DNA of 38,768 bases from Candidatus Omnitrophota bacterium (GCA_041663405.1 JBAYMW010000002.1:1-38768); one strand, 5' to 3'. Shown: positions 1 to 25,009, counted from the first letter of the stretch. Numbers and translations are program-made. Notes: a model not told the origin generated them from the letters alone.

Positions 1-3000
1 ATAGTTGTCTTTTTCGACGTTGTAGCTCTCGATCTCGGTGTCCCAGAAACTCGGCATGTCGTCATAATAATCGTATTCAAACTCGCCTATAGCGCGGGCG
101 CTAAAGGCCTTGTTATCCCACCAGTCTTCAGCCGTGGAACCCATGTAGCCGTATTCCCTGCCGATCCAATCTACACCGCCTTCTGCGCCGTCGGTATAAA
201 GGCTGCTATTTTCATATCCCCAATAGCCGCTGAGGGTCAGTCTGTTGCCGTTCCATGTGCCGGAACCCGAACCCAGCCAGGCACCGTCATCATAATATGC
301 GCCGTCCAGGTCGCCGGATATCGTGCCCATTTTTGTCCCGGTGATGAATAGGCCGTTGAGCGAACCGTTGAACCATCCGTCTCCCTGCCCGTTGAGATCC
401 GCTATCCAGTAGCCCTTATCGCTGTCGGCCGTTCCGTACGAATCCTCGTATGACAGATACGACGCATCCTCCGGCGCGGACCCTATAAGTTCCGCCAGCG
501 GCGTAGACGTGTCCCATGTATCATTGACGGAGGTGCTGCCTATGAGATTCCAACTGTCATCGTATGAATTTGTGTAAGAAGATGTGGTCCCGTCCCTATA
601 ATAATTCGTGTACGTATACTGATGCGTATTGTCTATATAATGATATTCGGATGTATATCCTTCGCTGTTATTATCATAGTATTGGTAAGAATATGATCCT
701 CCGTCATCGAGCTGATACTCTCCGTAAATATTCATGCAGGGATTATAGCAGCCGAAAACGTCGTTGCCGCCCATCTTCGCGGAGAATATGCCGTCCGTGA
801 CCGACGGCATCACGTATTCACCCATAAGTTTCTGGCTGTATATACCCCAGTCAAGCGCGGTATGGTGTTCATAATCCACAATGCTCGCGGTATACAGGTT
901 ATCATAACCGTTTATGTAGCCTTCGCCTGAGTATCCGCCCGCAAGCCTTCCGTCGCCTTCCTCTGTCCATATCGAACCTAAAAGGTCCGCAGCGCCGATA
1001 CCGGCGACCACGGGTGTTATGTTATTGTCATTCGTAAAGTCTCCGCCGAGCATATACGCCTCGGCAAGCGCGGAATATGCGCCGTCAAGACGGCCGGATT
1101 TTACTCCCGCGTAACCGTTCGGGTCGATATATATGATACGGGCGGAACCTTTTATCGCGCCGTCCTTGCCCGTAACCGAAGACAGGCCGTAATACGCGCC
1201 TGCCGGCTCATCGTCACCGCCGGAGATCTCCTCTTCCTTCGAGCCCTGGTTAACGTATTCGAAATCCGTCGTCCAGACGAAATCCCGGAGCGCGTTCTCT
1301 TCGTCCTCTTCCATGCTGCCTATAGACGTGAAATAAAAACCTTCTTCGCCCCAGAGGTCGCCGACCGTGCCGCCAAGGCCGCCTACATGGCCCGCGTGGT
1401 CGAAATATCCGTCGCCATAGTAACCGCCTTCATATCCCGGAGCATATGCGCAATTGTGCAGGTCGGTGCTGGACGAAAGTTCCTGTTCGATGAATCCGCC
1501 GCCGCCGATGCCTTCTACGCCCTCTCCGGCGTGAGCAAGTATGGTCCCGTAATAAGCGCCCAAAGTGTAGCTGTCAAGATAGGAGCCTGAGATATCAAGC
1601 CTGACGCCTCCGTTAAGGTCGTCCGATCCCTCTACGGATGAAAAGAAATACCCGTCGTTGTAATTACCGCCCGCCACGGCATTCCAGCTCGTCAGGCCGT
1701 TCGGGTTGTAGTATCCGCCGGAATGGGACTCCCTCCAGATACCCCAGTTCTGTCCGTCTATCTTGGCCATCTGCCTGTCGAATTCCGTATCGAAGTAGCC
1801 GTTGCCGCCGTCGAAAGCGAAGGAGAGATTTCCGTAGCCCCACCCTTCTATCGTCTCGTATTCGATGCCGGGTTCGAGCTGCGCCATCGGTATGAAGTAC
1901 AGGTCTCCGCTTCCCGCCATGTCGCCCGAGAAGTAACCGTCAAATCCATTCTTTGTGGCGGATCCGGAAAGCACGCCAAAGAGGTTGCCCGCAAGCCCGG
2001 AAGGGTCTATATATATAGAAGATACGACCGTATCCCAGCTGTGCATGATGCCGCCGCTCCAGCCGTAGAACGCGCCCCCGTCCTCACCGGCACCTGCGAC
2101 GTTGCCTGTAAACACCCTGTTATTCGGGGTGCTATACGCGCCGGTAACATCCATCGACATGACGCCCGACCACTGCTGTTCAAGCGGAGTGGTGCTTGAA
2201 AGCGCCATATTGAAAAAGTTGTTCTCGGAGCCCTCGTCGTATCCGAACGAGCCCTCGATGGTGCCGTTCATCGTAATTGGAAGAGGTCCCGGTTCCCCAT
2301 CTTTGCCCGATCCGCCGGTACCGCCTTCACCGGAACCTATTATGTCGGTAAAAGGCTTGTCGGAAAATACGTTATTGGCGCCGTTGTCCGGGTTTTTATT
2401 ATTGTTCGTCCCGCCGCCGGAATAACCTTCCGGGCCGGAATATCCCTCCACGTCACCGCCGATCTCCCATCCCTCATGCCAGTTAGATTTCTGGTCATCC
2501 GAAGGGGCCAAGGGATTGCTGATCCTCCCGTTACCATCGACCGACGAACCCGTGCCCATAGGCACGTTCTGTGTGGTCCCCGATATGATGCTTTTCAGGA
2601 CGCCGTTTCCTTCTTCGAAATAGGCGTTCGTGAAGTTCGGCAGTATATTGAGGAAGAGGACCGTACCGCGGACGCATGCAACCGCGTTCGGTGTCTTAAC
2701 TTCGAATTTCGAGTTGCCTTTCAGCTTTTCCACCTGGGCCCTGAGCTTGCCGCCTGTGGATTCGAAGAGGTTCTCGTATTCGCCCTTGCCGTCCTGCGAC
2801 AGCTTGGAGATCGTTACGTTCGAATTCTGCTGGAGGGTAATGACATTCCCGTTATCTAGCTTGAATTCCGCCTTGCCGTTGTCTTTTGTCTCGATCGAGT
2901 CGCCGGTCTTCACGGTCTCGTTGGCCTTGGCGTCATGCCATGCCTTGGAATCCTTGTTCTTTATCCTTACGTTCCCGGCCAATTTTACTATTACGGCCTT

Positions 3001-3696
3001 CATCTCTCCGGGCTGGCTGTATCCTTCGGCAACGGAGCCTTTGCCCTCTGACGCGGCAATTACGTTCCTGGAGATCGACGTATCCGTCTCATGTGACCTC
3101 TTCTCGGACGCGAGCATGACCCTCGGCATGGAAGGAGCGCTGTCCGCAGCGACTACGGAGACCTCTCCTCCCTTGACATCCACCTTCTTATCCGGAGCCG
3201 CCGGGTTCGATAACGAATATTTTCCGTTGAGTACCGCGACCGCAGTGGATGACTTCTGGAATACGACCACAACGTCCGTACCTTTTACGGAACCGTTGGC
3301 GTTAGGCGTGTTTATCGTGAAGCTGTCCTTGCCCGCGGACTTCGATATGACGGCCCTTATCTTCCCGCGCTCGACGTTCAATACGGCGCTTATCCTCTTT
3401 CCGTCTCCGCCGATGTTATAATCGGAAATGTCCAGTTTCGTCTTTTCCGCGAGCCTGACCACCGACTTGTCCGCAAAGGTGATCTCGGCCTTGGAAGAGC
3501 TCTTCGTGCGGACCGAGTCACCGACCTCTATATCGGACCCTATCTCGGCCGTCGATGAGGACGCGGAACCCGGCCTGAACAGGTCCACGCTCCCTTCGAG
3601 GGACGTTATCTTGCCTATGCCTGACGCAAATGCGGACGAGCACCCCAGTATAAGAAGGGCTGCTAACGCGACGGTCTTGATGCTGCGGCTTTTCAT
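1..3696 (-). CDS. Large secreted protein or lipoprotein with two FecR-type domains and a long Gly/Tyr/Asp/Trp-rich region. Partial: the 3' end lies beyond the window start, so at least 1232 codons.
   Basis: Not in the supplied ORF track, which appears to need an in-window stop. Manual reverse-complement translation from ATG 3696..3694 stays open to base 1 (3696 = 3 x 1232). AAGGAG RBS at 3711..3706, 9 nt upstream. N-terminus is MKSRSIKTVALAALLILGCSSAFASG, with a possible lipobox LILGC (3640..3654) or an AFA/S cleavage site. FecR-like modules at about aa 27-150 (nt 3247..3618) and aa 232-348 (nt 2653..3003), with GD-x-hydrophobic-x-T, KAE-hydrophobic-x-F and TPN-x(3-6)-GT motifs. All plus-strand ORFs here are short and overlapping. 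Confidence 0.8.
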   Translation of the reverse strand, partial: MKSRSIKTVALAALLILGCSSAFASGIGKITSLEGSVDLFRPGSASSSTAEIGSDIEVGDSVRTKSSSKAEITFADKSVVRLAEKTKLDISDYNIGGDGKRISAVLNVERGKIRAVISKSAGKDSFTINTPNANGSVKGTDVVVVFQKSSTAVAVLNGKYSLSNPAAPDKKVDVKGGEVSVVAADSAPSMPRVMLASEKRSHETDTSISRNVIAASEGKGSVAEGYSQPGEMKAVIVKLAGNVRIKNKDSKAWHDAKANETVKTGDSIETKDNGKAEFKLDNGNVITLQQNSNVTISKLSQDGKGEYENLFESTGGKLRAQVEKLKGNSKFEVKTPNAVACVRGTVLFLNILPNFTNAYFEEGNGVLKSIISGTTQNVPMGTGSSVDGNGRISNPLAPSDDQKSNWHEGWEIGGDVEGYSGPEGYSGGGTNNNKNPDNGANNVFSDKPFTDIIGSGEGGTGGSGKDGEPGPLPITMNGTIEGSFGYDEGSENNFFNMALSSTTPLEQQWSGVMSMDVTGAYSTPNNRVFTGNVAGAGEDGGAFYGWSGGIMHSWDTVVSSIYIDPSGLAGNLFGVLSGSATKNGFDGYFSGDMAGSGDLYFIPMAQLEPGIEYETIEGWGYGNLSFAFDGGNGYFDTEFDRQMAKIDGQNWGIWRESHSGGYYNPNGLTSWNAVAGGNYNDGYFFSSVEGSDDLNGGVRLDISGSYLDSYTLGAYYGTILAHAGEGVEGIGGGGFIEQELSSSTDLHNCAYAPGYEGGYYGDGYFDHAGHVGGLGGTVGDLWGEEGFYFTSIGSMEEDEENALRDFVWTTDFEYVNQGSKEEEISGGDDEPAGAYYGLSSVTGKDGAIKGSARIIYIDPNGYAGVKSGRLDGAYSALAEAYMLGGDFTNDNNITPVVAGIGAADLLGSIWTEEGDGRLAGGYSGEGYINGYDNLYTASIVDYEHHTALDWGIYSQKLMGEYVMPSVTDGIFSAKMGGNDVFGCYNPCMNIYGEYQLDDGGSYSYQYYDNNSEGYTSEYHYIDNTHQYTYTNYYRDGTTSSYTNSYDDSWNLIGSTSVNDTWDTSTPLAELIGSAPEDASYLSYEDSYGTADSDKGYWIADLNGQGDGWFNGSLNGLFITGTKMGTISGDLDGAYYDDGAWLGSGSGTWNGNRLTLSGYWGYENSSLYTDGAEGGVDWIGREYGYMGSTAEDWWDNKAFSARAIGEFEYDYYDDMPSFWDTEIESYNVEKDNY

Positions 3697-3714
3697 ATTA
3701 AGTGTCTCCTTGAT

Positions 3715-5223
3715 TTAAAATTTGTACTCGATCCCCATACTGTAGATGCTCCTGTCATAATCGTATACCGCTATATTCGAATGGTCCTTAACGTATGTAT
3801 ACCTGAACTGGAGCTCTGCTTCCTTCCAGAAATTATATCCGAGCATCGATGAGAGGGTGTAGGTCTGGTCGTCCCTCTCAACCCCGAAAATAGAATTCGT
3901 ATTTGAGAAATCCTGTAAATATATATCTCCGGCGAGGCTTGCCTTGAACCTCTTGAGGAACGGATACAGGATCGTCGCCGTGAACCTGTTCCCGAGGTAT
4001 TCCCAATTCCTGCCCTTCGTATCTTCCTTGTTTATCCCGTAGTGCGCCCCGAGGAAACCCTTGTTCTCCGCGAAAAAGAAATAATATCCGAGCCCGCCGC
4101 CAAAATCGTTCGAATTCCTGTCCTCATCCGGTATGAACGGGTCCCTCGCGAACTTCTTCTTCTTGTAGTCGAAATTCGTCTGGAGCATGTGGTTCCTGGC
4201 GAAAATATAATTGACGACCGGGCTTGCATTCAGCGTCGTCATATATTTGGAATCGCCGACATCCGTATAATTGTATCCCAATACGACGCCCGCGGTGCCG
4301 TTGTTCAGGTAGTAATTCGGAGTCACCGATACGGTGTGGCTGAGCACGTCATAGATCCCGAGCTTGTTCTGGTGCGCGAAATACATCGAATACTGGCCGT
4401 CGATCCCGAACCTGTCGGAGAATTTCTTCCGGTACTGGCCCATGAATGTGACGACCTCCCTCCAATCGCTCTCGTCGCTTATCCCGGACGCGACTGAATC
4501 GTCGCCCGGCTTCAACAATACATTGGTATCATACTGGCCCGAGACGTTCAACGTGGCCCTGAAAGGCTTCTCGGCTGTTTCCTTCCTCTTGAGGGCCTCG
4601 ATGTACTCGTTGGAGAGCCCCGCGATGTCGGAGTTCGGGTCCAGGAATATGATCTCCTTGAATACCTTCTTTGCCTCATCGAATTTCTTCTGCTTGATGT
4701 TGGCAAGCCCTATCTGGTAATCGGCCGACTGCGCTAACGAGCTATCCAGCGCCTTGGCGTTCTGGAAGGCCGTAACGGCCGCCTCATTATCATTATCCTT
4801 GAGCAAGACAAGGCCCTTAAGGAACGCTGTCTGCGCCGGCTTCACGTTCTCGCGCTCAGCCACCTCTAAGTAACTTCTCGCTTCCTTCAGGTCCCCGAGC
4901 TGGTACAGCACCTCAACGAGCTCTAGCAATGCCTCTTTTATCCTCGGGGTCAGGGTAACGGAATCGATCAGCTGTTCCTTAGCCTGCTTGTAATCCTGTA
5001 ATTGCTTATACGTGATGCCGAGATAGTACGCGGCAAGCGATGATTTTGGGTCAGTTTCCCTTACTTTCTTAAGAGCGGCCGCGGCTTCATCGAAATTTTC
5101 TTGTTTGTAAAGTTTTATGGCCTCTTCGAGTCGAGGATCCGTTTCAGCGAACAGTAAACCGGGGAGAATTAGCAATATTGAGACAATAATTACCGTAAAG
5201 GCGGGAAATACTTTTTGCGGCAT
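3715..5223 (-). CDS. Outer-membrane protein with signal peptide, N-terminal TPR repeats and a C-terminal beta-barrel of about 290 aa (Slam/DUF560-like architecture).
   Basis: 502-aa ORF. Signal peptide ends LLFA/ETD. TPR-like helical repeats cover about aa 30-205 (EEAIKLYKQENFDEAAAALKK..., YYLGITYKQLQDYKQAKE...). From FRATLNVSGQYDTNV onward there are alternating-hydrophobic strands rich in Y/G/N. C-terminal beta-signal is GIEYKF with terminal Phe. RBS AAGGGG lies upstream. Confidence 0.8.
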   Translation of the reverse strand: MPQKVFPAFTVIIVSILLILPGLLFAETDPRLEEAIKLYKQENFDEAAAALKKVRETDPKSSLAAYYLGITYKQLQDYKQAKEQLIDSVTLTPRIKEALLELVEVLYQLGDLKEARSYLEVAERENVKPAQTAFLKGLVLLKDNDNEAAVTAFQNAKALDSSLAQSADYQIGLANIKQKKFDEAKKVFKEIIFLDPNSDIAGLSNEYIEALKRKETAEKPFRATLNVSGQYDTNVLLKPGDDSVASGISDESDWREVVTFMGQYRKKFSDRFGIDGQYSMYFAHQNKLGIYDVLSHTVSVTPNYYLNNGTAGVVLGYNYTDVGDSKYMTTLNASPVVNYIFARNHMLQTNFDYKKKKFARDPFIPDEDRNSNDFGGGLGYYFFFAENKGFLGAHYGINKEDTKGRNWEYLGNRFTATILYPFLKRFKASLAGDIYLQDFSNTNSIFGVERDDQTYTLSSMLGYNFWKEAELQFRYTYVKDHSNIAVYDYDRSIYSMGIEYKF

Positions 5224-5287
5224 TTGCTGGGCCCCTTGGTTAAAATAGGTTAGTTTTTAAAGATTATGAATGAAGTAAATTTTATTA

Positions 5288-5316
5288 AATATACCATTTG
5301 CAAGCGGTTATGTCAA
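5288..5316 (-). promoter_or_regulatory. Sigma70-type promoter for the TPR/barrel plus giant-ORF operon
   Basis: On the minus strand: TTGACA (5316..5311), 17 nt spacer, TATATT (5293..5288), about 65 nt upstream of the ATG at 5223. Confidence 0.5.
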
Positions 5317-5327
5317 GTAAATATTTG

Positions 5328-5355
5328 TTGACAAAAGCCTAAATACTGATATAAT
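5328..5355 (+). promoter_or_regulatory. Sigma70-type promoter for the PEP-CTERM gene
   Basis: TTGACA (5328..5333), 16 nt spacer, TATAAT (5350..5355). GAGG RBS lies about 10 nt before the ATG at 5405. Confidence 0.55.
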
Positions 5356-5404
5356 ATCTGTAAGTTTAAGTCAAAAACAGCCAATCTATTGAGGTAAAGT
5401 CCAG

Positions 5405-5923
5405 ATGAAGAGCTTATTAAGCGTTATTGTTATTGTCTCCGCGTATTTTGTCGTATCCTGCCCTCCCGTTTATGCCGATCAGGAGTATCCGGGGTTCCAG
5501 ATGTGGACTGTGGCCAGCGAAACCTCGTCTACCGTCGTATCGGAATTTGACCTGGGAGCGACCCCATATCTGTATCTTCAGCTTCCTACCGCGCCCGACG
5601 ACCTTTGGTACTCTGAAGTCAATTCAGATTGGCTGAAAGGCATCACGCTTAAGGGCGAGGCTGACAGGGTCGGGTTCCAGACAGTATACCACATAGCTCT
5701 TTCGGGATATGACTGGTCGGATACATCAAATATAGGGTCATGGACGATTAACGCGGACTATGATTACAAGAGGTTAGGTTTCGGAACGCTCATCTCTTCG
5801 GATTCCGGATATACCACATTCACCATCAAGGATCCCGGGACTGTCCCCGAACCGGTCTCTACTATCCTTTTCCTTGCCGGCGGTTCCGCGCTGGTGGGAA
5901 GGCGTTTCCTGAGGCGTAAATAA
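5405..5923 (+). CDS. PEP-CTERM sorting-domain protein (small secreted protein, putative exosortase substrate)
   Basis: 172 aa with an N-terminal signal peptide (cleavage near VYA/DQE). C-terminus is VPEPVSTILFLAGGSALVGRRFLRRK, which reads as PEP motif, hydrophobic helix and Arg-rich tail (nt 5837..5920). Confidence 0.85.
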   Translation: MKSLLSVIVIVSAYFVVSCPPVYADQEYPGFQMWTVASETSSTVVSEFDLGATPYLYLQLPTAPDDLWYSEVNSDWLKGITLKGEADRVGFQTVYHIALSGYDWSDTSNIGSWTINADYDYKRLGFGTLISSDSGYTTFTIKDPGTVPEPVSTILFLAGGSALVGRRFLRRK

Positions 5924-5935
5924 GCAGCTTCTATT

Positions 5936-7831
5936 TCAGGTTATCTTAAGCACGATAACCGTCATGTCGTCGTGCTGCGGCATTCCCTTGCTGAACTTCT
6001 GGACTTCCTCTACCATCTTATCCGATAATCCCTGTGCCGAAAGCCGCCTGTTCAAAAGCGCCGTATCGAGTATCCTCTTCTCGCCGAATTCCTTGATGTT
6101 CCTGTCGCGGGCCTCCGATATGCCGTCCGTGTACATTACGAATACATCGCCTGCAGACACATTAAATTCATCCGCCGTAAATTCTGCGCCCGGTATTATG
6201 CCGCACGGGCTTCCGACCGATTGCGTCAGCGAGAGTACCTCGCCGTTATCCTTTACCCACACAAGCGGGTTATGGCCTCCATTCGAATATTTTACGGTCC
6301 TCTCCTTCGGCTTGTAGATCAGGTACTGGAGAGTCACGAACATGCCCGATACCCCCTCTTCTACGAGCCTGTCGTTTATCGCGGTCATCGCTTCATTCGG
6401 CTCGTTAAAATCGTGGGTCAGCCCGCGGAAATCAGCCATCGCCTTTGCCATATACAGGGCCGCCGGCACCCCCTTTCCCGAGACGTCGCCTATAACTATC
6501 CCGAGGCGGTCTTCTTTTAATTTGATGAAATCGTAGATGAGCTTGATGAAATCATAGAAATCGCCTCCGACATGTTTTGCCGGGACGCATTTGATGCCGA
6601 TATCTATACCGATCGCATGCGGGAGGCTCTGAGGAAGTATCGACTGCTGGATGCGGCTGGCGATTTGCAGCTCTTTTTCTATAAGGCCCTTCTCGAATTT
6701 CGCTATGATGAGCTGGTTGAGCGTTATCGCCGGATAGCAGACGCACAGCAGTATCAGGATAGATACGTAATCCAGCCATATATTGAAAAAAGCGAATAAT
6801 ACGTACGCGATCAGAAGCGTGCCCGCTAAAAGCGCCGCGAAGAGCGCGAGCCCCTCGATCGGCGTCCTTTTGGGCAGGGTCAAGCCCAATGCGGTACCGA
6901 TAAGGAATATGATCAGCAGGATCTCGGGCCTGAAGATCCTGTGAATGAAGTCCCTTCTTAATATCGTGTTAATAGCGCTGGCCCTTATTCCTACGCCGGG
7001 ATATAAGGACGACATCGGCGTCGCCCAGAAATCCTCGGAACCGGTCGCGGTCATGCCTATTATCACTATCTTATCTTTCAGAGCGTTAAGGTCGATATCG
7101 GACGCTTCCCCGTCCTGCGCCTGGATGCCTGCCAATGCGACAGACGCAAAGGACATCCTCTTGAAGCGCGAGAATACGCCCGGATAGTTTATCCACATCA
7201 TATCGTTCGCGTCAGTCCTTAAGGCCATCTTGGCGGGTTCAACACCCAGGAAATGCGCCGCGGCGAGCATGTCTATCGATATATATTCATCTCCGCCATG
7301 GGAAAGCTTTAGCGGGACCTTGCGGACCTTGCCGTCCGGTTCGACCGATATGTTGACGAAACCTACGCCCTTCGCGGTCTTTTGCAGGTCAGTGATCGGC
7401 ATAGTTATATCGCGGGGCTTGATGATGTTCTTCCGCAGGTCATCCTGGCCCAGATCGAAGAAAGCCGAATAGAATACATTTCCGAGCTTTCTTGTCTGGT
7501 CGGCAAGTTTACTGTCTTCTCCGGGCTTATCGTTCTGAGGCTCGCTGAAGAGGATATCGAAGACGATCGTCTTAGGGCCGTACTCTTCGATCATATCCAG
7601 CAACTCGGCATGGTACCCCCTGTCCCAGGGCCACCTGCCGAAAGCCTTAAGCGACGCGTCGTCAATCTCTATAATTACTATATCGGGGCTTACCGGCCGG
7701 GGGCCTCTCAGCCAGAAAAGCTTATCGAGGCCCTGGTATTCGGCGAGCTCAAATACCCCGAGGATATACGCAACGCCTATCACGGCGCAGCATATCAATC
7801 CGATAAAAAGGCCGCTCTTCTTCTTCATCAT
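5936..7831 (-). CDS. CHASE2 sensor domain, transmembrane segments and PP2C/SpoIIE-type serine phosphatase (RsbU-like)
   Basis: 631 aa. N-terminal TM then a CHASE2-like periplasmic region (IVIIEIDDASLKAFGRWPWDRGYHAELLD...FDILF). A TM cluster follows at about aa 300-375. C-terminal PP2C motifs are GGDFYDF, GDVSGKGVPAALYMA, NGGHNP, YTDGISEA and DDMTVIVLKI. Confidence 0.88.
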   Translation of the reverse strand: MMKKKSGLFIGLICCAVIGVAYILGVFELAEYQGLDKLFWLRGPRPVSPDIVIIEIDDASLKAFGRWPWDRGYHAELLDMIEEYGPKTIVFDILFSEPQNDKPGEDSKLADQTRKLGNVFYSAFFDLGQDDLRKNIIKPRDITMPITDLQKTAKGVGFVNISVEPDGKVRKVPLKLSHGGDEYISIDMLAAAHFLGVEPAKMALRTDANDMMWINYPGVFSRFKRMSFASVALAGIQAQDGEASDIDLNALKDKIVIIGMTATGSEDFWATPMSSLYPGVGIRASAINTILRRDFIHRIFRPEILLIIFLIGTALGLTLPKRTPIEGLALFAALLAGTLLIAYVLFAFFNIWLDYVSILILLCVCYPAITLNQLIIAKFEKGLIEKELQIASRIQQSILPQSLPHAIGIDIGIKCVPAKHVGGDFYDFIKLIYDFIKLKEDRLGIVIGDVSGKGVPAALYMAKAMADFRGLTHDFNEPNEAMTAINDRLVEEGVSGMFVTLQYLIYKPKERTVKYSNGGHNPLVWVKDNGEVLSLTQSVGSPCGIIPGAEFTADEFNVSAGDVFVMYTDGISEARDRNIKEFGEKRILDTALLNRRLSAQGLSDKMVEEVQKFSKGMPQHDDMTVIVLKIT

Positions 7832-9759
7832 TCTATTATTATCTCACATTTGGGCAGGGCCGACAAAAACTTTCTTCCGTAAGGCTTATGCAGGATACGG
7901 CTGTCGAGTATCGCGACTATGCCGGAATCGTTCTTTGTCCTGATAAGCCTGCCGAATCCCTGCTTCAATTTCAGTATCGCCTGCGGCAGGCTGTATTGAG
8001 AGAACGGGTCGTCGCCGGCCTCCTTTATCCTGTCCATCCTCGCCTCGGATATCGGATGGTCGGGCACCGCGAACGGCAGGCGCGTTATTATGACGTTTCC
8101 GAGGGCTTCACCCGGCACGTCGACCCCCGTCCAGAACGAATCTACGCCGAATATCACCGAACCGACATCGCGCTTGAACGCTTCAAGCATCTTCGTCCTC
8201 GGCAGACCTAACCCCTGCTTCAGTACGGGTATGCCTATATCGGCGAAATAGCCCGCCGTCTCCTCGTATACATCGTCCATGAACCTGTAGCTCGTGAAGA
8301 GCACGAAAGCCCTTCCCTCCGTCCTCGTGACATATTCCTTCACCTTCTTCACGACCTCTTCCTTATACCTGATATAATCGTTCGGGTCGGGCATCTTCCT
8401 CGGGATGAATATCTTGACGTTCTTCTCGTAGTCGAAAGGCGAGCCGAGCAGTTTCTCGGCAGGTTTCATTATTCCGAGCCGCGACTTTATGAACTCGAAA
8501 TTCCCTTCCGTGGATAACGTCGCGCTCGTCAATACGACCGTGTTAACTTTAGTGAAGAGCATCTCCTTCAATGAGGGCGCAATGTTTACGGGCGCGCAGT
8601 CAAGCGCGATCCTCCTGAAACGCCTGCCGGACGCCTCAGCCCAATAGACATAATCGTCCATCTTCTGTTCCATGAAGGCGGAAAGCGTGCCCAGCAGCCC
8701 CTCGACCCTCGTCATGTAATATTTAAGGTCGATCTCCTCTTCCTTTGACCTGCAGCCCTTTGCCTTGTCCTTAAGCTTGCGGTGAAGGTTTTCGAGCGAT
8801 AACGAGAGGTTGTCCTCTATGAAATCAGCGCCCCTTACGCGGCGCATGGAATCTTTCCCGAGCCAATCCGTAACCTCGTCAAAAAATATCTCCGAGGCAC
8901 TCCTGACTTCCGCGACCGCATCCTTCAGCCCCGATTCCTTTATTGAGGTCAGGAACCCCTTCCTCTTGGACGGGTTGTAGAGCGAATCCATAAGGTACTT
9001 GACCCGGTAATTGGATATCTCGGAGCCAAGGTGCTCCGTCGCGACGTCCTCTATAGTATGGGCCTCGTCAAATACGGCGCACGAGTAATCGGGGAGCAGC
9101 GCCCATTCGGATTGGCGCAATGCGAGGTCGGAAAAGAAGAGATGGTGGTTGACCACGAGCAGGTCGGCTTCCTGTATGTCCTTCCGCGCCTTCATCAGGA
9201 AACATGCGTCCCTGTTAGCGCATTTCTTTCCCATACAGGTATCGTGTTCGCAGCAGACCCTCTCCCATACCTTCCGGTCGGGCTCAGTCTCAAAATCCGC
9301 CAAGGAACCGTCCGTAGTGACCTTTGACCATGAGAGTATCTCCTGCAGGCTCCCTGCTTCCTCTTTTGATTCCAAAAGGTCGGTCTTCGATGACAGGACC
9401 CTGTTCATCCTCCTGAGGCAGAGGTAATTCGACCTTCCCTTCACAAGGCAATATTTGAAATCAAAAGGCAGGATGCCCGACAGCAGAGGAATATCCTTCT
9501 TAACCAGCTGTTCCTGGAGGCTTATCGTGTTCGTGGAGATCACGGCCTTCTTTTTCGAGGATACCGCAAAATCTATGGCGGGGACAAGATACGCGAATGA
9601 TTTTCCTACGCCGGTGCCTGCCTCGACTATCAGGTGCGATCTCCGCCGTATCGCGTCTTCGACCGATCCGGCCATCTCGGCCTGCTGCGGGCGGGACTCA
9701 TAATCCTTGAACGATTCGGCAAGCACCCCTTTTTTGCCGAAGAAATGCGCGCAGTCCAT
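7828..9759 (-). CDS. dinG: DinG/XPD-family ATP-dependent DNA helicase with Fe-S cluster
   Basis: 643 aa. Walker A is AGTGVGKS and the DEAH box is VFDEAHTIED. Cys cluster: NYLCLRR ... CCEHDTCMGKKCANRDACF. C-terminal helicase motifs TSATL and FGRLIR are present. 4-bp overlap with the downstream gene. Confidence 0.9.
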   Translation of the reverse strand: MDCAHFFGKKGVLAESFKDYESRPQQAEMAGSVEDAIRRRSHLIVEAGTGVGKSFAYLVPAIDFAVSSKKKAVISTNTISLQEQLVKKDIPLLSGILPFDFKYCLVKGRSNYLCLRRMNRVLSSKTDLLESKEEAGSLQEILSWSKVTTDGSLADFETEPDRKVWERVCCEHDTCMGKKCANRDACFLMKARKDIQEADLLVVNHHLFFSDLALRQSEWALLPDYSCAVFDEAHTIEDVATEHLGSEISNYRVKYLMDSLYNPSKRKGFLTSIKESGLKDAVAEVRSASEIFFDEVTDWLGKDSMRRVRGADFIEDNLSLSLENLHRKLKDKAKGCRSKEEEIDLKYYMTRVEGLLGTLSAFMEQKMDDYVYWAEASGRRFRRIALDCAPVNIAPSLKEMLFTKVNTVVLTSATLSTEGNFEFIKSRLGIMKPAEKLLGSPFDYEKNVKIFIPRKMPDPNDYIRYKEEVVKKVKEYVTRTEGRAFVLFTSYRFMDDVYEETAGYFADIGIPVLKQGLGLPRTKMLEAFKRDVGSVIFGVDSFWTGVDVPGEALGNVIITRLPFAVPDHPISEARMDRIKEAGDDPFSQYSLPQAILKLKQGFGRLIRTKNDSGIVAILDSRILHKPYGRKFLSALPKCEIIIE

Positions 9760-10611
9760 CTATCTAGGCTTAATGGCAAGCTCCTCAAGGCGCGCTATTC
9801 TGCGCTCGATCGGAGGGTGAGTGCTGAAAAATGAAAGGAAACCGCCTCCCGTAAGGGGATTCACGATGAACATATGCGCGGTTACCGGGTTTGCCTTCAT
9901 CGGCATCTGGCGCGAGTAATTATGCATCTTCCTCAGGGCGTTTGCCAGTGAGAGCGGCCTTCCGGAGATATCCGCCCCCGAATCGTCGGCCATGTATTCA
10001 CGCGAACGGGATATCGCCAGCTGTATAAGCGTCGCCGCGATGGGGGCGACTATCACGATAACGAGCGCGGAGACCGCGCTGCTGCCGTTCCTGTCGTCAT
10101 CCGACCTGCCTCCGAATATCATAGCCCATCTTGCCATGTCCGATAACATGTAGATCGCGCCGGCCACTGTCGCTACCAGGGTCATGATCAGTGTATCCCT
10201 GTTCTTGACATGCGAAAGCTCGTGCGCGATGACGCCTTCCAACTCATCGTCCGAGAGCAGCTTCATGATGCCTTCGGTAACGGCGACCGCGGCATGCGAG
10301 GGATCCCTTCCGGTCGCGAACGCGTTGGGCGTCTCTGTAGGTATGACGTATACTTTCGGCATCGGAAGGCCCGCCTTGGTCGATAAGTTGGAGACGGTGA
10401 CCAGCAGCTTCGGGTACTCCTCGCGCCTCACCTCTTTTGCGCGGTACATCGATAAGACTATCTTGTCTGAGAACCAGTAGGCCACGAAGTTCATCGCCAG
10501 CGCGATCGCGAAGGCGACTATCATGCCCTGCCTTCCGCCAACCATCCCGCCAATGAATATAAGCAGCAGCGTAAGCAGCGTAAGGAAAAAAACAGTTTTG
10601 ATAACGTTCAT
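9760..10611 (-). CDS. htpX: M48 zinc metalloprotease HtpX
   Basis: 283 aa with N-terminal TM helices, an HELSHV zinc motif and the typical HtpX C-terminus ([13 protein letters not shown]). Confidence 0.93.
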
Positions 10612-10628
10612 ATTGAGGTTGTCTCCCC

Positions 10629-11171
10629 TTAAAGGTTCTTGATCTCGGATACTTCTTTGTCTATCAGGTGCGCGACTTCGGATATTTCCTTGATGGAATT
10701 ATCGACGGCTTTCTTGAAATATATGGCGCCCGGATGCCTTTCCCCGAGCTCCACGAGCCTCGCGCCCATATCGATAAGCGATAGGTACATCTTCTTGAGC
10801 TCCTGGGCGTCCTTGTAGTTCCTGAACTTGCGGTTAAGGAACTTCGTCAGGTCCTTCTTGTCCTCCGGGTCGATCTTCGTGAATTTCACGCCGATGCCGG
10901 GATAATACGTCGGGTTCAGGTCTTTATCGGCGATCCACGCAACTTTACCCGATACAAGTACCGGATGCGACACCGTCGGCAGCATGAACTCCAGGTCCAT
11001 ATCCATGCCGATCCGGAATTTTTTGTCCGTCTTGAGGAAGAGTCCGTGCCGCCCGAAATTCTTCGACCTGAACATATAAGCGTTGCCGCTGGATGATTTA
11101 TCTTTCTTCCTGTGCCACTTCACTTCTACGTCAAGCGCCAGACGGCGGTGCAATCTTTTGTTGGAACCCAT
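10629..11171 (-). CDS. PilZ domain protein (putative c-di-GMP receptor) with a C-terminal helical extension
   Basis: 180 aa. RLHRR matches the RxxxR motif. NFGRHGLFL is a slightly degenerate D/NxSxxG motif. GIGVKF strand is typical of PilZ barrels. Confidence 0.65.
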
Positions 11172-11184
11172 TGTCAGCCCTCTC

Positions 11185-11808
11185 CTAAGATGCCTTCTTT
11201 GCCTTTATTATGAATTCCCTCATAAGCTTCGCGTCTTTCTTTCCGGGGGATGATTCTACCCCGCTCGATACGTCGACAGCATATAGGTTTGTCTTCTTGA
11301 TCGCTTCCGATACGTTGCCGGGATTAAGCCCTCCGGATAGTATGACCGGCCTTCCGAGTTTCCTGGCAGCCGCCGGAGCAATGCTCCAGTCGAATTTCAA
11401 GCCCGTCCCGCCCGCCTTGCCCGCCTTGTATGTATCAAGCAGGAAGGCGTCTACATCATAACCTGAAAACCCGGAAATACCGCTCCTTCCGCCTACCCTT
11501 ATTACTTTGACTATTTTATAATATTTCTTAAGTACTTTGCAATAGTTTCTACTCTCTGTGCCATGGAGCTGGATGCAGTCAAGGCGGCACTTTTCTGCGA
11601 TACTGCGAACTTTCTTGATATTCTCATCCACAAAAACGCCTACAAGCGATATATATGGCGGCAGGTGCGCTGCTATCTTCCTGACCGTAGCTATATCGGT
11701 TCGCCTCGGGCCCTTCGCGAAGACAAAACCCAGCGCGTCGGCACCGAGCCGGCAGGCGGTTTCGGCGTCTTTCAAGTTCGTGATACCGCAGATCTTTACC
11801 CTTACCAA
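11185..11808 (-). CDS. trpF: Phosphoribosylanthranilate isomerase
   Basis: 207 aa starting VKICGIT, with LGADALGFVF and a length typical of TrpF. Last gene of the trp block. Confidence 0.9.
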   Translation of the reverse strand: MVRVKICGITNLKDAETACRLGADALGFVFAKGPRRTDIATVRKIAAHLPPYISLVGVFVDENIKKVRSIAEKCRLDCIQLHGTESRNYCKVLKKYYKIVKVIRVGGRSGISGFSGYDVDAFLLDTYKAGKAGGTGLKFDWSIAPAAARKLGRPVILSGGLNPGNVSEAIKKTNLYAVDVSSGVESSPGKKDAKLMREFIIKAKKAS

Positions 11809-12578
11809 CCCATCACCCTTTTTACTTCCGCCGAGATATCGTCGGACTCCATGAAAGCCGTACCTATAAGGACAGCCTTGATGCCTGATGACGCAAGCGC
11901 CTGGATATCCTCGGGGTCCCTTATGCCGCTCTCCGAGATGACTATCTTTCCCTCAGGTACCTTAAGGATCAATTCCCTGGTGACCTGCAGGTCGACTTCC
12001 AGCGTCCTTAAGTTCCTGTTATTGATCCCAATTATCTCGGCGTCAATGCCCAGCGCCTTCTCGAGGTCGCGCTCGTCATGTACTTCGACGACCGTATCCA
12101 TTCCGAGGGATTTCGCTTCATGGAAGAGCGCCTTGAGCATTCCCCTGTCGATCGCGGTCGCGATTAGAAGGATCGCGTCGGCTCCTGCGACCGCCGATTC
12201 GTATACCTGGTACTCTGATATTATGAAATCCTTCCTCATGACCGGAAGGCTCACGGCATCGCGGACTTCCCTCAGGTTATCCATGCTTCCCTGGAAAAAT
12301 TTATCCTCAGTAACGACCGAAAGCGCCGCGGCGCCGGCGTTCTTGTATATCTTCGCTATGCCTGCGGGGTCGAAGTCGTGCCTGATAACACCGTGCGACG
12401 GGGACGCTTTCTTCACCTCCGCGATGAGGTTTATCCTGTTCTTCCTTGATATGGCAGACTTGAATCCCCTGTTCTTTACGGGCTTAGCCTGTTTTTCCAA
12501 TTCATCAAGCGGAAGCGCCTCCTCGGCGCGTTCCAGCCTGTGCTTCTTATGCTCGATTATCTCCTGCAGGGTTATCAT
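11802..12578 (-). CDS. trpC: Indole-3-glycerol-phosphate synthase
   Basis: 258 aa with LIAEVKKASPSHGVI, VLTE-like SVVTEDKFFQGS and GINNRNL motifs. Confidence 0.93.
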   Translation of the reverse strand: MITLQEIIEHKKHRLERAEEALPLDELEKQAKPVKNRGFKSAISRKNRINLIAEVKKASPSHGVIRHDFDPAGIAKIYKNAGAAALSVVTEDKFFQGSMDNLREVRDAVSLPVMRKDFIISEYQVYESAVAGADAILLIATAIDRGMLKALFHEAKSLGMDTVVEVHDERDLEKALGIDAEIIGINNRNLRTLEVDLQVTRELILKVPEGKIVISESGIRDPEDIQALASSGIKAVLIGTAFMESDDISAEVKRVMGW

Positions 12579-13585
12579 TTGTTCGTTGCCTCCTTGAGCT
12601 GCTCGAGTTTCCTAAGCCCCTCTCCGGATTCTATCGACTCCTTGGCGATCTCGATCCCTTCCTTTATGCTTTTCGCCCCATCCGCCGCATATATTGCGCA
12701 ACCCGCGTTCATTATCACGATATCGCGTTGAGGCCCTTTCTCGCCGCTTAGCACGGCTATAGCTATCTTTGCGTTCTGCGAAGCGTCTCCGCCCTTCAAT
12801 TCTTCCGATTTGGATCTCTTTATGCCGAATTCCATCGGCGTGATCTCGTAGCTTGTGACCTTACCGCCCCTCAGTTCCGATACCTGCGTCGAATCAGAGG
12901 TCGTGACCTCATCCAGGCCGTCATCACCGTGCACGACCAGGGCATGTTTTGAGCCAAGCTCTCCTAGCGCCTGTGCTATAGGTTTTGTAAGCTTATAATC
13001 GTATACTCCCAGTAGCTGGTGGGTCGCGTTTGCGGGATTCGTCAGGGGCCCAAGAATGTTGAACATCGTGCGTATCCCGATCTCCTTACGGGGCCCGACT
13101 GCGTACCTCATCGCCTTATGCAGGACAGGCGCGAAGAGGAAACCGATACCTATCTCATCCAGGCACCTCGATACAATATGCTCCTCGGTCTCTATGTTTA
13201 CGCCCAGTTCCTTGAGCAGGTCCGCGCTGCCGCATTTCGACGACACGCACCTGTTGCCGTGCTTGGCAACGGCTATTCCGGCGCCGGCGACTACGAATGC
13301 CGCGATGGTGGATACATTGAATGTTTGGGACTCGTCCCCTCCCGTGCCGCATGTGTCTAGGATCACGGGATGCCTGGTCTTTATCCTTGTGGCATGCTTG
13401 CGCATTATAACAGCAGCTCCTACGATCTCTTCTATCGTTTCGCCCTTCATGCGCATCGCCGTAAGGAATGACCCGATCTGGGCCGGCAGCGCCTGCCCGG
13501 TCATTATCTCCTCCATGGCAAGCTCCACCTCGGCCCTCGACAGGCCCTCGGACCTCACGAGCTTCGCGATGGCTTCCCTGATCAT
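12575..13585 (-). CDS. trpD: Anthranilate phosphoribosyltransferase
   Basis: 336 aa with [13 protein letters not shown] and GPLTNPA motifs. 4-bp overlaps on both sides. Confidence 0.95.
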
Positions 13586-14151
13586 TTGGAAAGCTCCAGG
13601 AAATTCTTCAACATCTTTTTGCCCTCAAATGTCAGTATCGATTCCGGATGGAACTGCACTCCCCACACCGGATATTCCTTATGCCTCAATCCCATTATCT
13701 CGTTGTCTTTTGTCCGCGCGGTCACCTCAAGGCAGTCCGGCAGCGTCTTTCTTTCCACAATAAGCGAGTGGTACCTTATTGCCGCGAAGGGATTCGGCAG
13801 CCCCTTGAATATCTCTTTGCCGTTATGTGATATCATCGATGTTTTTCCGTGCATGGGCCTGGCCGCTTTTATTACGCGGCCGCCAAAAACCTCTCCTATG
13901 CACTGGTGGCCGAGGCAGACGCCGAGGATCGGCACCTTACCCGAGAATTCCCTTACGACGGAGCTGGATATGCCCGCATCCCTCGGGAACCCCGGCCCGG
14001 GTGATATTATGATGCTGTGCGGCTTAAGGCCGGCTATCGCATCTAACGATATCTTATCGTTCCTGAACACCTTAAGCGCCTGGCCCATCTCTCCGAGATA
14101 CTGGACCAGGTTATAGGTGAACGAATCGTAATTGTCTATCATCAGGATCAT
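13582..14151 (-). CDS. trpG: Anthranilate synthase component II (class I glutamine amidotransferase)
   Basis: 189 aa with [22 protein letters not shown] and QFHPES motifs. Confidence 0.9.
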
Positions 14152-14152
14152 G

Positions 14153-15628
14153 TTATATAATCCCCTTCTCGGCGGCCTCTATCGCTTTTATCGTGGCCTT
14201 CGCCTTATTTACCGTCTCCTGGTATTCCTTGCCGGGGTCGGAATCGGCGACTATCCCTCCGCCTGCCTGCACATACGCCTTGCCGCCCTTGACAACTATC
14301 GTCCTGATATTTATGCAGGTATCGGTATTGCCCGAGAAACTGAAGTATCCTACGAGGCCTGCATACGGGCCGCGCCTTGTATTTTCAAGCTCTTCTATTA
14401 TCTCCATGGCCCTGACCTTGGGGGCTCCGGATACCGTTCCTGCCGGGAATGTCGCCCTGATCACGTCAAACATGTCCTTATCGGGCCTCAGCTTTCCGGT
14501 ACACTCGCTAACTATATGCATGACATGGGAGTACTTCTCAACTGTCATGAGCTCAGATACCTTTACCGTGCCGTATTTACAGACCCTGCCGATATCGTTG
14601 CGCCCGAGGTCCACGAGCATTATGTGTTCCGCGCGTTCCTTGACGCTCGAAAGCAGGTTCTTCTCGAGCCGCTTTTCCTCGTTTTCAGTCTTTCCCCTCG
14701 GCCGTGTGCCGGCTATAGGCCTTAATTTGACGACATCGTCCTCGCACCTTACCATAAGTTCGGGCGAAGCCCCGACCAGCGAGAGGTCCTTCATCTTCAG
14801 GTAATACATGTACGGCGAGGGATTGATCATCCTGAGGGAACGGTAGAGGTCTATACCCGGGCAGGTTATATCCGTGCTGAATCGCTGTGACGGCACCACC
14901 TGAATTATATCGCCCGACCTGATATAGCTTTTTGCCTTCTTTACTATCGAGACGAATTCCCCTTTCGTGAAATTGGATTCTATGCCGATCTTTCCGGAGG
15001 CCGGCTTCCTGTGTTTCACGGACAGGGGCGCGTTGAGCAGTTTTACGATGCTGTTTATCTTCCTTACGGCCCCGTCATATGCTTTCGAGGGGTCGCCCGA
15101 GACGTAAGCGTTCGAGACGACCTTTATCTTATGTTTCACGTGGTCAAATATAAGTATCGTGTCCGTGAGCATGAAGACCGAGTCCGGCACCTTTAGGTCG
15201 TCCGGATTTTTCGAGGGCAGTTCCTCGAAAAATCTTACCATATCATATCCCATAAAGCCCACGAGCCCTCCGCAGAATCTCGGAAGACCCGGGGTATGCA
15301 CGAAACTGTACCTGTCGAGGATCTTCTTCATCTCCCCGAGAGGGTCCGATTGCGCCGTGAAACGTTTTGTATTCCCGTCTTCCGTCAGTTCGACCTTCCC
15401 GTCTTTGCTCCTGAATACGAGCGACGGCCCCGAGCCGAGGAACGAATACCTCGCGATCTTCTCTCCGCCTTCGACCGATTCAAGCAGGAAGGAATAATCC
15501 CCCTTGTCGATCTTCATGAAAGCGGAGACCGGGGTCTCGAGGTCAGCCGTGATCTCGCCGAATACCGGTATCAGGTTGCCCATCTTAGACAGGCGCGCGA
15601 ATTCTTCTCTTGACGGAACGTATTCCAT
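14153..15628 (-). CDS. trpE: Anthranilate synthase component I
   Basis: 491 aa with the chorismate-binding C-terminus ([25 protein letters not shown]). The start ATG shares one base with the hisI stop (TAATG). Confidence 0.95.
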
Positions 15629-24220: not shown

Positions 24221-25009
24221 TTAAGCCAATTTTAGCAAAATTCTTGCGTTCGATGAGAGTATTTTATCCTTAAGCCCGCCGTCAATGTCAAGGCCGCCGA
24301 TATAATCCAGGTCCTTCTTCGGGTCCCTGAGCGGGAAATCCGTTCCGAATAGCAGCCTGTCCGGCCTGTGGGATAATAACAGTCTCCTCGTCTCCTCTTT
24401 CGGCAGGAACCCGAAAAAAAAGGATGTATCGAGATAGATGTCCTTGCCGAGAAGGTGCTTCTTCACTTCGTCCCATAACCTGAAACCGCCGAAATGCCCG
24501 CCGATCATCTTTAGGCCCGGGAACTTTTCCTTGACCTTGATGACGCGATGCGGGGATGATCTCACTTGCATGGTCCCTGAAAGCTCCTCGCCGCAATGGA
24601 AGAGTACCGGCAGGCCGGCTTTCTCCATCTCTCCGTATGCCGGGAATACGCTCTCGTCGTCGACGTAAAAACCCTGGAACTCCGGCTGCAGCTTTATTCC
24701 GTCGCCTTTGTCCCTTATTCTCTTCAGTTCGTCCCTCCAGCCTGCGTACGCGGGATGGAACGCGCAGAAGACCTTTAAACGTTTGCTCCTGATACCAAAG
24801 AGCCAGTCATTTATAGCCGGCACCTGCTCCGGCTTTGTCGCGACCGAACATATGACGCTCACGTCGATGCCGTTTTTGTCCATGTGTTCCAGCAGGCCGT
24901 CTTCCGTGGGATCGCAGATCATCTTAACCCCGAAGAGCGACTCAAGGCTCTCCCTCGCCTTCTGCGACACCTTCCCGGGCCAGGCGTGAGTATGTATGTC
25001 TACGATCAC
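24221..25009 (-). CDS. Amidohydrolase-2 family (TIM-barrel metal-dependent hydrolase)
   Basis: 262 aa starting MIVDIHTHAWP (HxH metal motif), with FHCG and GTDFP motifs. GTG start in a GTGA overlap with the upstream gene stop. Confidence 0.75.
   Translation of the reverse strand: MIVDIHTHAWPGKVSQKARESLESLFGVKMICDPTEDGLLEHMDKNGIDVSVICSVATKPEQVPAINDWLFGIRSKRLKVFCAFHPAYAGWRDELKRIRDKGDGIKLQPEFQGFYVDDESVFPAYGEMEKAGLPVLFHCGEELSGTMQVRSSPHRVIKVKEKFPGLKMIGGHFGGFRLWDEVKKHLLGKDIYLDTSFFFGFLPKEETRRLLLSHRPDRLLFGTDFPLRDPKKDLDYIGGLDIDGGLKDKILSSNARILLKLA

Follow-up and report, generated by a model that had tools for sequence, protein, structure and literature searches.

Type 11 secretion relies on an outer-membrane protein of the DUF560 family, which in Proteobacteria exports lipidated or soluble cargo; the feature common to the cargo is a C-terminal eight-stranded barrel, and its N-terminus acts as the effector (PMC12282271, PMC8406197). 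The exporters are 14-stranded barrels preceded by an N-terminal periplasmic TPR domain, while the barrels of PgaA are 16-stranded (PMC8406197). Genes for CHASE2 sensors, in turn, have been found close to FecR genes: a CHASE2 histidine kinase accompanies a LysM-FecR protein in Burkholderia (PMC5192318), a CHASE2 cyclase clusters with a phosphodiesterase, a FecR protein, and a TPR protein in Campylobacterota (PMC9239204), and CHASE2 is encoded beside a FecR-domain gene in the cyaD1-smc02177 pair of S. meliloti (PMC5498481). In the latter organism, signaling by the CHASE2 cyclase depends on NsrA, a barrel protein of the outer membrane (PMC13001267, PMC7529298). Here, we describe a gene pair bearing likeness to both arrangements, located on a stretch of 38,768 nucleotides from a Candidatus Omnitrophota bacterium (GCA_041663405.1 JBAYMW010000002.1:1-38768; this whole stretch is called the window). 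The pair consists of a gene for a 502-residue protein with a TPR domain and a β-barrel (the barrel protein) and a gene for a large FecR-domain protein (the partner), for which a preliminary description had proposed a Slam-like translocator with a giant FecR-domain protein as its cargo. On balance, we favor reading the locus as a two-gene export module composed of a divergent type 11/Slam-like exporter and an adjacent, non-lipidated, modular FecR cargo; this module is probably linked to a CHASE2 sensor.

The barrel protein and its relation to type 11 exporters

The open reading frame (ORF) of the barrel protein and its translation (3715..5223, minus strand; TAA stop codon at 3717..3715) begin with MPQKVFPAFTVIIVSILLILPGLLFA, followed by ET (signal sequence …LLILPGLLFA/ET), and end with ...SMGIEYKF. 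A signal peptide (residues 1–26; 5146..5223) is followed by a TPR domain, which was assigned by Pfam and by the structural model (residues 30–217; 4573..5136), and by a predicted 14-stranded β-barrel ending in GIEYKF (residues 221–502; 3718..4563), all on the minus strand. Several TPR families of Pfam matched residues 30–200, for example TPR_16 with an E-value of 9e-19. The AlphaFold2 model, computed from 37 homologues, had a mean predicted local distance difference test score (pLDDT) of 89.7 and consisted of the signal helix, 11 helices between residues 30 and 217, and 14 β-strands between residues 221 and 501. In the strand regions, blocks of 10 residues averaged pLDDT values of 85–97, and the sole loop below 50 comprised residues 239–248. 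Signal peptide and model show the barrel protein to be an outer-membrane protein exported via Sec, whose TPR domain lies in the periplasm and whose barrel has 14 strands in the model. ORF, Pfam, and AlphaFold2 thus bear out the signal peptide, TPR repeats, and C-terminal barrel that had been described before, and the number of strands is the expected 14 rather than 16–18. Both the strand count, which differs from the 16 of PgaA-type barrels, and the N-terminal TPR domain following a Sec signal peptide are those of type 11 exporters; Neisseria Slam1/2, Xenorhabdus NilB and HrpB, and Acinetobacter HsmA are likewise single outer-membrane proteins in which a signal peptide and a TPR domain precede a barrel of 14 strands. 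Unlike in these, the TPR domain is ∼190 rather than ∼140 residues long, and the window protein lies below the detection limit of PF04575.

In the Pfam search, the window protein yielded no match to PF04575 (SlipAM; gathering cut-off 22 bits, model length 288 positions) at an E-value ≤1, whereas homologues matched this model above its cut-off, so that any membership of the window barrel in SlipAM would be transitive. Eight full-length homologues, 41–51% identical to the window protein, scored 25.5–34.1 bits (P0034, 34.1; P0083, 30.2; P0077, 29.0; P0084, 29.0; P0102, 28.5; P0079, 26.6; P0119, 26.4; P0047, 25.5), and P0077 (model positions 3–281) and P0119 were matched across nearly the whole model. 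The highest of these scores was surpassed by P0348, with 43.4 bits over model positions 1–278 of 288, which aligns to the window barrel with an E-value of 2e-36. The similarity to DUF560 that had been suggested therefore holds for the family and not for the window protein itself, for which a direct Slam assignment was discarded and the link made via its homologues. When 40 family members were searched with their barrels alone, BBP2_2 was found in 37, DUF2860 in 25, and SlipAM in 16 (best E-value 1.3e-10). The TPR_Slam model (PF24575) was matched in relatives below its cut-off only (15–31 bits versus 35.2). When 1.84 billion representatives were queried by phmmer with only the barrel, 912 clusters were matched at an E-value ≤1e-3, 107 of them at ≤1e-30; nearly all of these relatives are ∼500 residues long and carry the barrel at their C-terminus. 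Searches of PDB sequences yielded only TPR proteins with the full-length family profile and nothing with the barrel-only profile. Taken together, the SlipAM matches at the family level, the 14 strands, and the TPR domain known from the type 11 literature suggest that the family is a divergent offshoot within the SlipAM superfamily.

Conservation of the gene pair

The barrel gene and the partner gene are separated by a spacer of 18 nucleotides (3697..3714, minus strand), in which the ribosome-binding site AAGGAG (3706..3711) was read from the sequence; the ATG of the partner gene follows directly at 3696. Sequence and Pfam thus confirmed that a same-strand gene with two FecR domains lies 18 nucleotides downstream, and the short spacer with its ribosome-binding site implies cotranscription of the two genes. 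A σ70-like promoter, TTGACA-17 nt-TATATT with an extended TG (5288..5316, minus strand; 11 of 12 positions in a consensus scan), lies ∼65 nucleotides 5′ of the barrel gene within a divergent promoter region; it is a candidate only, because promoter-like sites in this region do not exceed the expectation from shuffled sequence.

Scanning one genome for each species yielded 80 loci, which derive from Candidatus Omnitrophota, Thermodesulfobacteriota/"Deltaproteobacteria", Nitrospirota, and Nitrospinota. Where the downstream sequence sufficed (75 loci), a FecR gene followed the barrel gene directly and on the same strand in 68 and was found within 2 kb in five more, with intergenic distances mostly between −4 and +50 nucleotides. 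By clustering of neighboring ORFs, the FecR partner was present in 69 of the 80 loci. The FecR gene occupies the place that the cognate cargo gene has beside the exporter gene in type 11 systems. That the pair is conserved in relatives supports the preliminary description, as does the occurrence of its hosts outside the classical Proteobacteria, type 11 secretion having so far been described in Proteobacteria only.

Some Omnitrophota-like loci (L008, L013, L019, L028, L072, and others) stem from bins labeled "uncultured Planctomycetia/Planctomycetales" and, in one case, Actinomycetota; they are near-identical to Omnitrophota loci, and their taxonomic labels look unreliable. In L055 (5587..9235), one barrel gene is followed by two tandem paralogous partner genes (601 and 605 residues), whose products are nearly identical at the N-terminus and differ in their C-terminal modules. 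The giant partner gene is intact in L004 (11536..18143; 2201 residues) and split into ORFs of 903, 822, and 497 residues in the otherwise near-identical L003 (11536..18141). Split partner genes, which also occur in L015, L019, L025, L030, and L032, are probably artefacts of assembly or of frameshifts where the sequence is repetitive.

The partner is a modular FecR protein

Because the source contig stops where the window does, the partner gene is truncated by the assembly, and only its 5′ part of 1232 codons (1..3696, minus strand; by translation) is present. The protein starts with MKSRSIKTVALAALLILGCSSAFASGIGK, which includes LILGC, and has a Sec signal peptide (residues 1–24; 3625..3696) with the cleavage site AFA/S. 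Two stretches matched the FecR domain (PF04773, E-value 7.8e-26), residues 60–159 (3220..3519) and 222–348 (2653..3033). They are followed by a Gly/Asn/Ser-rich linker (approximately residues 400–470; 2287..2499) and by acidic, Gly/Asp/Tyr-rich β-modules, which an iterated hidden Markov model (HMM) placed at residues 471–599 (1900..2286), 614–750 (1447..1857), and 988–1165 (202..735), again all on the minus strand. Below threshold, the LipL45, Lsa33, and retention_LapA families were matched as well, whereas a comparison of the FecR region of the window protein with PDB sequences found nothing. The closest complete relatives comprise 2227–2231 residues, and the 2231-residue protein of L008 is 76% identical over 1231 residues.

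LILGC had been taken for a possible lipobox. It fits a loose lipobox definition only, and its cysteine is a serine in the three closest relatives. In a motif scan of 68 non-redundant partner N-termini, a strict lipobox was found in none and an AxA-type signal peptidase I site in 64; every partner has an N-terminal Sec signal peptide, which ends in sites such as AFA/S, AFA/G, or YA/E and is immediately followed by the motif vGkiTyveGrVD, which opens the FecR domain. The cysteine exchange, the missing lipobox, and the prevalent signal peptidase I site indicate that the partner is most likely not a lipoprotein, and the lipoprotein hypothesis was abandoned, signal peptidase I cleavage having been named in the preliminary description as a finding that would refute it. 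Because unlipidated cargo is also secreted by type 11 systems (PMC12282271), this removes the notion of a surface lipoprotein and leaves that of Slam-like export. Like type 11 cargo, the partner depends on Sec and may end in an eight-stranded β-domain, as predicted for a short orthologue; it differs from such cargo in having N-terminal FecR domains and tandem β-modules and in lacking sequence similarity to TbpBBD or lipoprotein C. The term FecR is absent from both PMC12282271 and PMC8406197 (CHASE2, for which only PMC12282271 was searched, is absent from that paper), in agreement with the earlier proposal that FecR domains are new to this class of cargo.

Most partners share one plan, with one or two N-terminal FecR domains, a flexible Gly-rich or disordered linker (Pro/Thr-rich or charged in short partners), and 1–13 β-modules of ∼145 residues. 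Their length, between 256 and 2348 residues across the loci, is set by the number of repeated modules. Thus, the very large size that had been ascribed to the partner holds in the window, where at least 1232 residues are encoded, but is not a conserved property. Most complete partners, short or long, end in a conserved module of ∼110–145 residues with the consensus …FFA…GIWA…G.Y…W…L.G.qW…W.A.V.G…F.G.AAGTY…GTF.G.GAGTw, which in ∼45 partner ORFs was found at the extreme C-terminus with independent E-values of 1e-20 to 1e-35. Long partners are tandem arrays of this module according to the iterated HMM, with 13 copies in the 2348-residue protein, 9–11 in proteins of 2009–2231 residues, three in those of 755 and 1027 residues, and one in those of 413–443 residues; the tiling is regular, but because iterated profiles drift on Gly-rich sequence, these copy numbers are approximate. 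The repeat region has a markedly acidic composition (Gly 16.5%, Asp 8.7%, Tyr 8.0%, Lys plus Arg ∼3%). A database search with the module profile, aimed at cargo devoid of FecR domains, retrieved short proteins only (89–259 residues). The five sequences inspected resemble fragments of genes and have no signal peptide, which makes this search uninformative about the N-terminal diversity of the cargo.

The AlphaFold2 model of a 436-residue orthologue (P0121) contained a disordered linker (residues 233–292) and, at residues 294–436, eight strands, which may close into a barrel, with pLDDT values of 85–96. The best Foldseek match of P0121 was PDB entry 5ix9 (76 residues, TM-score 0.82, root-mean-square deviation 1.9 Å, 24% identity), the anchoring domain at the N-terminus of the ice-binding adhesin from Marinomonas, which served as the template for the LapA retention module (bioRxiv 10.1101/198937; PMC5550230). 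We infer that it aligns to the FecR region of the partner; it agrees with the sub-threshold match of NCBIfam retention_LapA to residues 233–303 of the window partner (E-value 1e-7; 32.3 bits versus a cut-off of 50). The remaining matches were weak (E-values 0.02–0.4) and comprised eight-stranded barrels (dirigent proteins, TbpB, NHBA, avidins, and lipocalins) as well as PR-10/START folds and fluorescent proteins. A profile of short partners also gave weak matches in the PDB to FaeG, a K88 fimbrial subunit, towards its C-terminus (E-value 0.008–0.05; P0121 residues 323–400), which is probably a compositional effect. Giant RTX adhesins such as LapA and MpIBP likewise combine an N-terminal retention-like domain, a Gly-rich linker, and a long array of β-domains. 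Unlike them, the partner has a Sec signal peptide instead of a C-terminal type 1 secretion signal, genes for an ABC transporter, a TolC-like protein, LapG, and LapD are not adjacent, and retention_LapA stays below its cut-off; the likeness to LapA is the resemblance of one domain only.

Association with CHASE2 sensors

A gene for an inner-membrane sensor of 631 residues lies upstream of the pair in the window (5936..7831, minus strand; Pfam), with a CHASE2 domain at residues 16–312 (E-value 4.7e-56) and a PP2C/SpoIIE phosphatase domain at residues 440–630 (1.1e-48). In the window, it is separated from the barrel gene by a divergent ORF of 172 codons for a PEP-CTERM protein. In other Omnitrophota loci, the CHASE2 gene is located 84–126 nucleotides upstream of the barrel gene, even in a locus with entirely different flanks. 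Among the 31 loci with at least 2.5 kb of upstream and 8 kb of downstream sequence, 18 contained a CHASE2 gene. The CHASE2 proteins of Nitrospirota and Thermodesulfobacteriota carry an adenylate/guanylate cyclase domain and no PP2C domain. CHASE2 is thus the constant feature and the output domain the variable one, which ties the association to the CHASE2 input domain and not to the output. The recurrence of the sensor makes a signaling role likely, and the CHASE2-PP2C protein is a probable signaling partner of the barrel-FecR pair. In having CHASE2 sensors and not TonB-dependent receptors as neighbors, the pair again departs from type 11 systems. The published CHASE2-FecR(-TPR) clusters likewise place a CHASE2 sensor of variable output beside a secreted FecR protein and, in one case, a TPR protein, and the requirement for an outer-membrane barrel protein in S. 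meliloti is a further likeness; in those reports, however, the TPR protein was not identified as a Slam-like barrel nor the FecR protein as possible cargo, and the output in the window, a PP2C phosphatase, is different.

In locus L006 (46% identity; 4792..9873), genes for an RsbW-like kinase (HATPase_c_2), a STAS protein, and homologues of MlaE/MlaF/MlaD come before the CHASE2-PP2C gene, an arrangement suggesting that the PP2C phosphatase feeds a partner-switching cascade; the window contains no STAS or RsbW genes. Clustering of neighboring ORFs further revealed three genes 3′ of the partner gene in 18–19 loci, none of them in the lineage of the window (L006, 17576..19196; L043, 13215..14006; L031, 16072..16641; L046, 16332..16823). 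They encode a lipoprotein of ∼264 residues with a SurA-like N-terminal domain (19 loci), a membrane protein of ∼190 residues (with a weak HAMP match in L006), and a secreted protein of ∼164 residues with an HExxH motif (…AHEIAHAV…), which could serve the partner as chaperone, transducer, and processing protease, respectively.

A proposed export and signaling module

Architectures, family-level homology, strand counts, gene adjacency, and CHASE2 association were observed, and both the transport of the module array by the barrel through the outer membrane and the communication of the FecR end with CHASE2 are inferred. Traits of the partner that are reminiscent of cargo include the Sec signal with its AxA-type site, the conserved terminal module with its eight predicted strands and weak structural matches to eight-stranded barrels, the acidic tandem arrays, and the SurA-like chaperone gene that follows in 19 loci. 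In such a module, the C-terminal β-module, predicted to be eight-stranded like the barrel of type 11 cargo, would be recognized by the barrel protein, which would convey the array onto the cell surface. With its FecR end, the partner would communicate with the periplasmic CHASE2 domain of the neighboring sensor, whose output is a PP2C phosphatase in the window lineage and an adenylate/guanylate cyclase in other phyla. With the array facing outward and the FecR end facing CHASE2, the surface protein would form the outer arm of a trans-envelope signaling pathway.

Several observations weigh against this proposal. On the side of the exporter, the window protein itself was not detected by SlipAM, and its C-terminal part gave sub-threshold matches to DUF2860 (E-value 4e-4) and BBP2_2 (2e-3) instead, the latter of which is also the most widespread match in the family. 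Moreover, PF04575 detects some PgaA homologues as well (PMC8406197), so that a SlipAM match alone is no proof of protein export. On the side of the cargo, the C-terminus of the partner is absent from the window, so all statements on it rest on relatives of 76% identity. The module is only putatively a barrel, as the model yields a count of eight strands, and its structural matches to the barrels of TbpB and NHBA were not significant (E-values 0.1–0.3). None of 33 C-terminal modules matched a relevant Pfam family at an E-value ≤10, and the module profile retrieved only chance matches from PDB sequences, with no chain of TbpB, fHbp, or hemophilin. Judged by sequence, the module is a new family, and homology to TbpBBD or lipoprotein C was rejected on these grounds. 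Some distant partners (L079, L082, L078, L076, and the Nitrospinota type) are devoid of the module, and CHASE2 is missing from 13 of the 31 well-flanked loci.

More tentatively, the partner may be a trans-outer-membrane tether that acts as a surface sensor in a LapA-like manner, an extension of the export module to which we would give no more than modest credence. After Sec export, the C-terminal β-modules would pass outward through the Slam-like barrel, the Gly-rich linker would stay in the pore, and the FecR/retention-like domain would remain folded in the periplasm, where it would touch CHASE2. Binding, pulling, or loss of the surface fiber could then be reported to the PP2C phosphatase in Omnitrophota or to the cyclase in Nitrospirota and Thermodesulfobacteriota.

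Alternative explanations

The most serious rival, though an unlikely one in our view, is a periplasmic signaling complex without export, in which the TPR-barrel protein would serve in the outer membrane as a receptor or anchor, in the manner of NsrA or FecA. Its TPR domain would hold the FecR protein in the periplasm, from where the latter would relay an event at the outer membrane to CHASE2, and nothing would cross this membrane. Periplasmic FecR domains couple to outer-membrane proteins in FecA-FecR signaling (PMC5498481), CHASE2 and FecR genes are adjacent in several published cases, and NsrA shows that an outer-membrane barrel can be needed by a CHASE2 cyclase. The proximity of CHASE2 to the pair whatever its output domain, and the shortest partners (256–293 residues), which hold little besides the FecR domain, also fit a complex of this kind. 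However, partners of up to 2348 residues with 13 tandem acidic β-modules are hard to fit into the periplasm, and the conserved module at the extreme C-terminus, the relationship to SlipAM, and the 14 strands point to a translocator; the well-flanked loci devoid of CHASE2 speak against this explanation, too. FecA-FecR-FecI systems likewise combine a FecR-type domain, an outer-membrane barrel protein, and an inner-membrane signaling output. Here, however, the barrel lacks both a plug and a signaling domain and is no TonB-dependent transducer of 22 strands, the FecR protein is no anti-sigma factor that spans the membrane, and no gene for an extracytoplasmic function sigma factor is adjacent. A FecA-like transducer was dismissed because the Pfam search revealed no plug or TonB-dependent receptor domain.

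That the barrel protein exports polysaccharide as a porin, be it of the PgaA/BcsC/PelB kind or an EpsL-like barrel linked to PEP-CTERM proteins, with the FecR gene as an unrelated neighbor, is very improbable. When the barrel model was compared with the PDB by Foldseek, BcsC was indeed the top match of the whole model (E-value 1e-12), and PelB, OmpG, CymA, and general porins were also retrieved, but TM-scores were low throughout; that of BcsC (0.32–0.43) was driven by the shared layout of a TPR domain plus a barrel. As no Slam entry was among the matches listed, the fold search does not discriminate. The BBP2_2 matches of 37 of the 40 family members could likewise be taken in favor of a porin, but they cover only the last 60–130 residues, and those of DUF2860 are confined to the C-terminal part as well; the model has 14 strands and not 16–18. 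Annotation of the window proteins by Pfam and NCBIfam revealed no polysaccharide glycosyltransferase, synthase, or exosortase, and none was found among the recurrent neighbors, which agrees with the previous remark that no glycosyltransferase adjoins the barrel gene. The PEP-CTERM ORF does lie divergently beside the barrel gene, but it was found in only 6 closely related loci, compared with 69 of the 80 for the FecR partner. Strand count and gene context therefore speak against both the exopolysaccharide porin and the EpsL-like alternative that had been mentioned before.

Finally, the eight long strands predicted in the module and a weak Foldseek match to a minimal OmpA-type transmembrane barrel (E-value 0.34) could mean that the partner, too, belongs to the outer membrane, where its C-terminal module would be embedded like OmpA and the TPR-barrel protein would help to assemble it, but this is hardly credible given that the module is polar and acidic, is repeated 3–13 times in tandem in longer partners, and in many copies has no aromatic β-signal at its end and variable tails after the last strand.

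Genomic surroundings

The barrel gene is flanked in the window by the genes for the CHASE2-PP2C sensor and the PEP-CTERM protein and by trp/his housekeeping genes; the remaining genes are housekeeping as well (his, trp, alaS, recA/recX, ftsK, rodZ, and others). The CHASE2/barrel/FecR module is embedded in the trp operon, alongside genes for PilZ, HtpX, and a YoaA/DinG-like helicase (window, 1..15628, minus strand; L003, 1..20509). The gene order is trpE-G-D-C-F, then the module with the PilZ, HtpX, and helicase genes, and, in complete relatives, an ORF of 94–103 codons and trpB-trpA. The PEP-CTERM ORF (172 residues, with a signal peptide; 5405..5923, plus strand) matched TIGR02595 with 18.6 bits versus a cut-off of 16 and is preceded by a perfect promoter sequence, TTGACA-16-TATAAT with an extended TG (5328..5355). 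It is divergent from the barrel gene and occurs in the six closest loci only, where it comes between the CHASE2 and barrel genes. Elsewhere, the window encodes a protein of 1080 residues with two F5/8 type C (discoidin) domains, probably a large surface protein (25006..28248, minus strand), a GAF-GGDEF protein (29489..31015), and the PilZ protein (10629..11171).

Implications

As to the barrel and the conserved pair, the preliminary description largely holds, but it erred on the lipobox; the link to CHASE2 and the modular nature of the partner were absent from it. Known type 11 cargo consists of TbpB-type barrels for capturing host metals or for adhesion, and the cargo proposed here is a modular FecR protein. 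The branch of barrel proteins to which its exporter belongs is made up of hundreds of clusters at 50% identity in metagenomes and is spread over four phylum-level groups, Omnitrophota, Nitrospirota, Nitrospinota, and Thermodesulfobacteriota. Clusters of CHASE2, FecR, and TPR genes have been noticed before without a mechanism, and a Slam-like pore with a FecR protein as substrate or tether would give a concrete, testable model of trans-envelope signaling for them. If the tether exists, it would supply a protein input for CHASE2 domains and would extend type 11 secretion to signaling and to non-proteobacterial phyla. The barrel-FecR module may also bear on how giant surface proteins are displayed by the ultra-small Omnitrophota.

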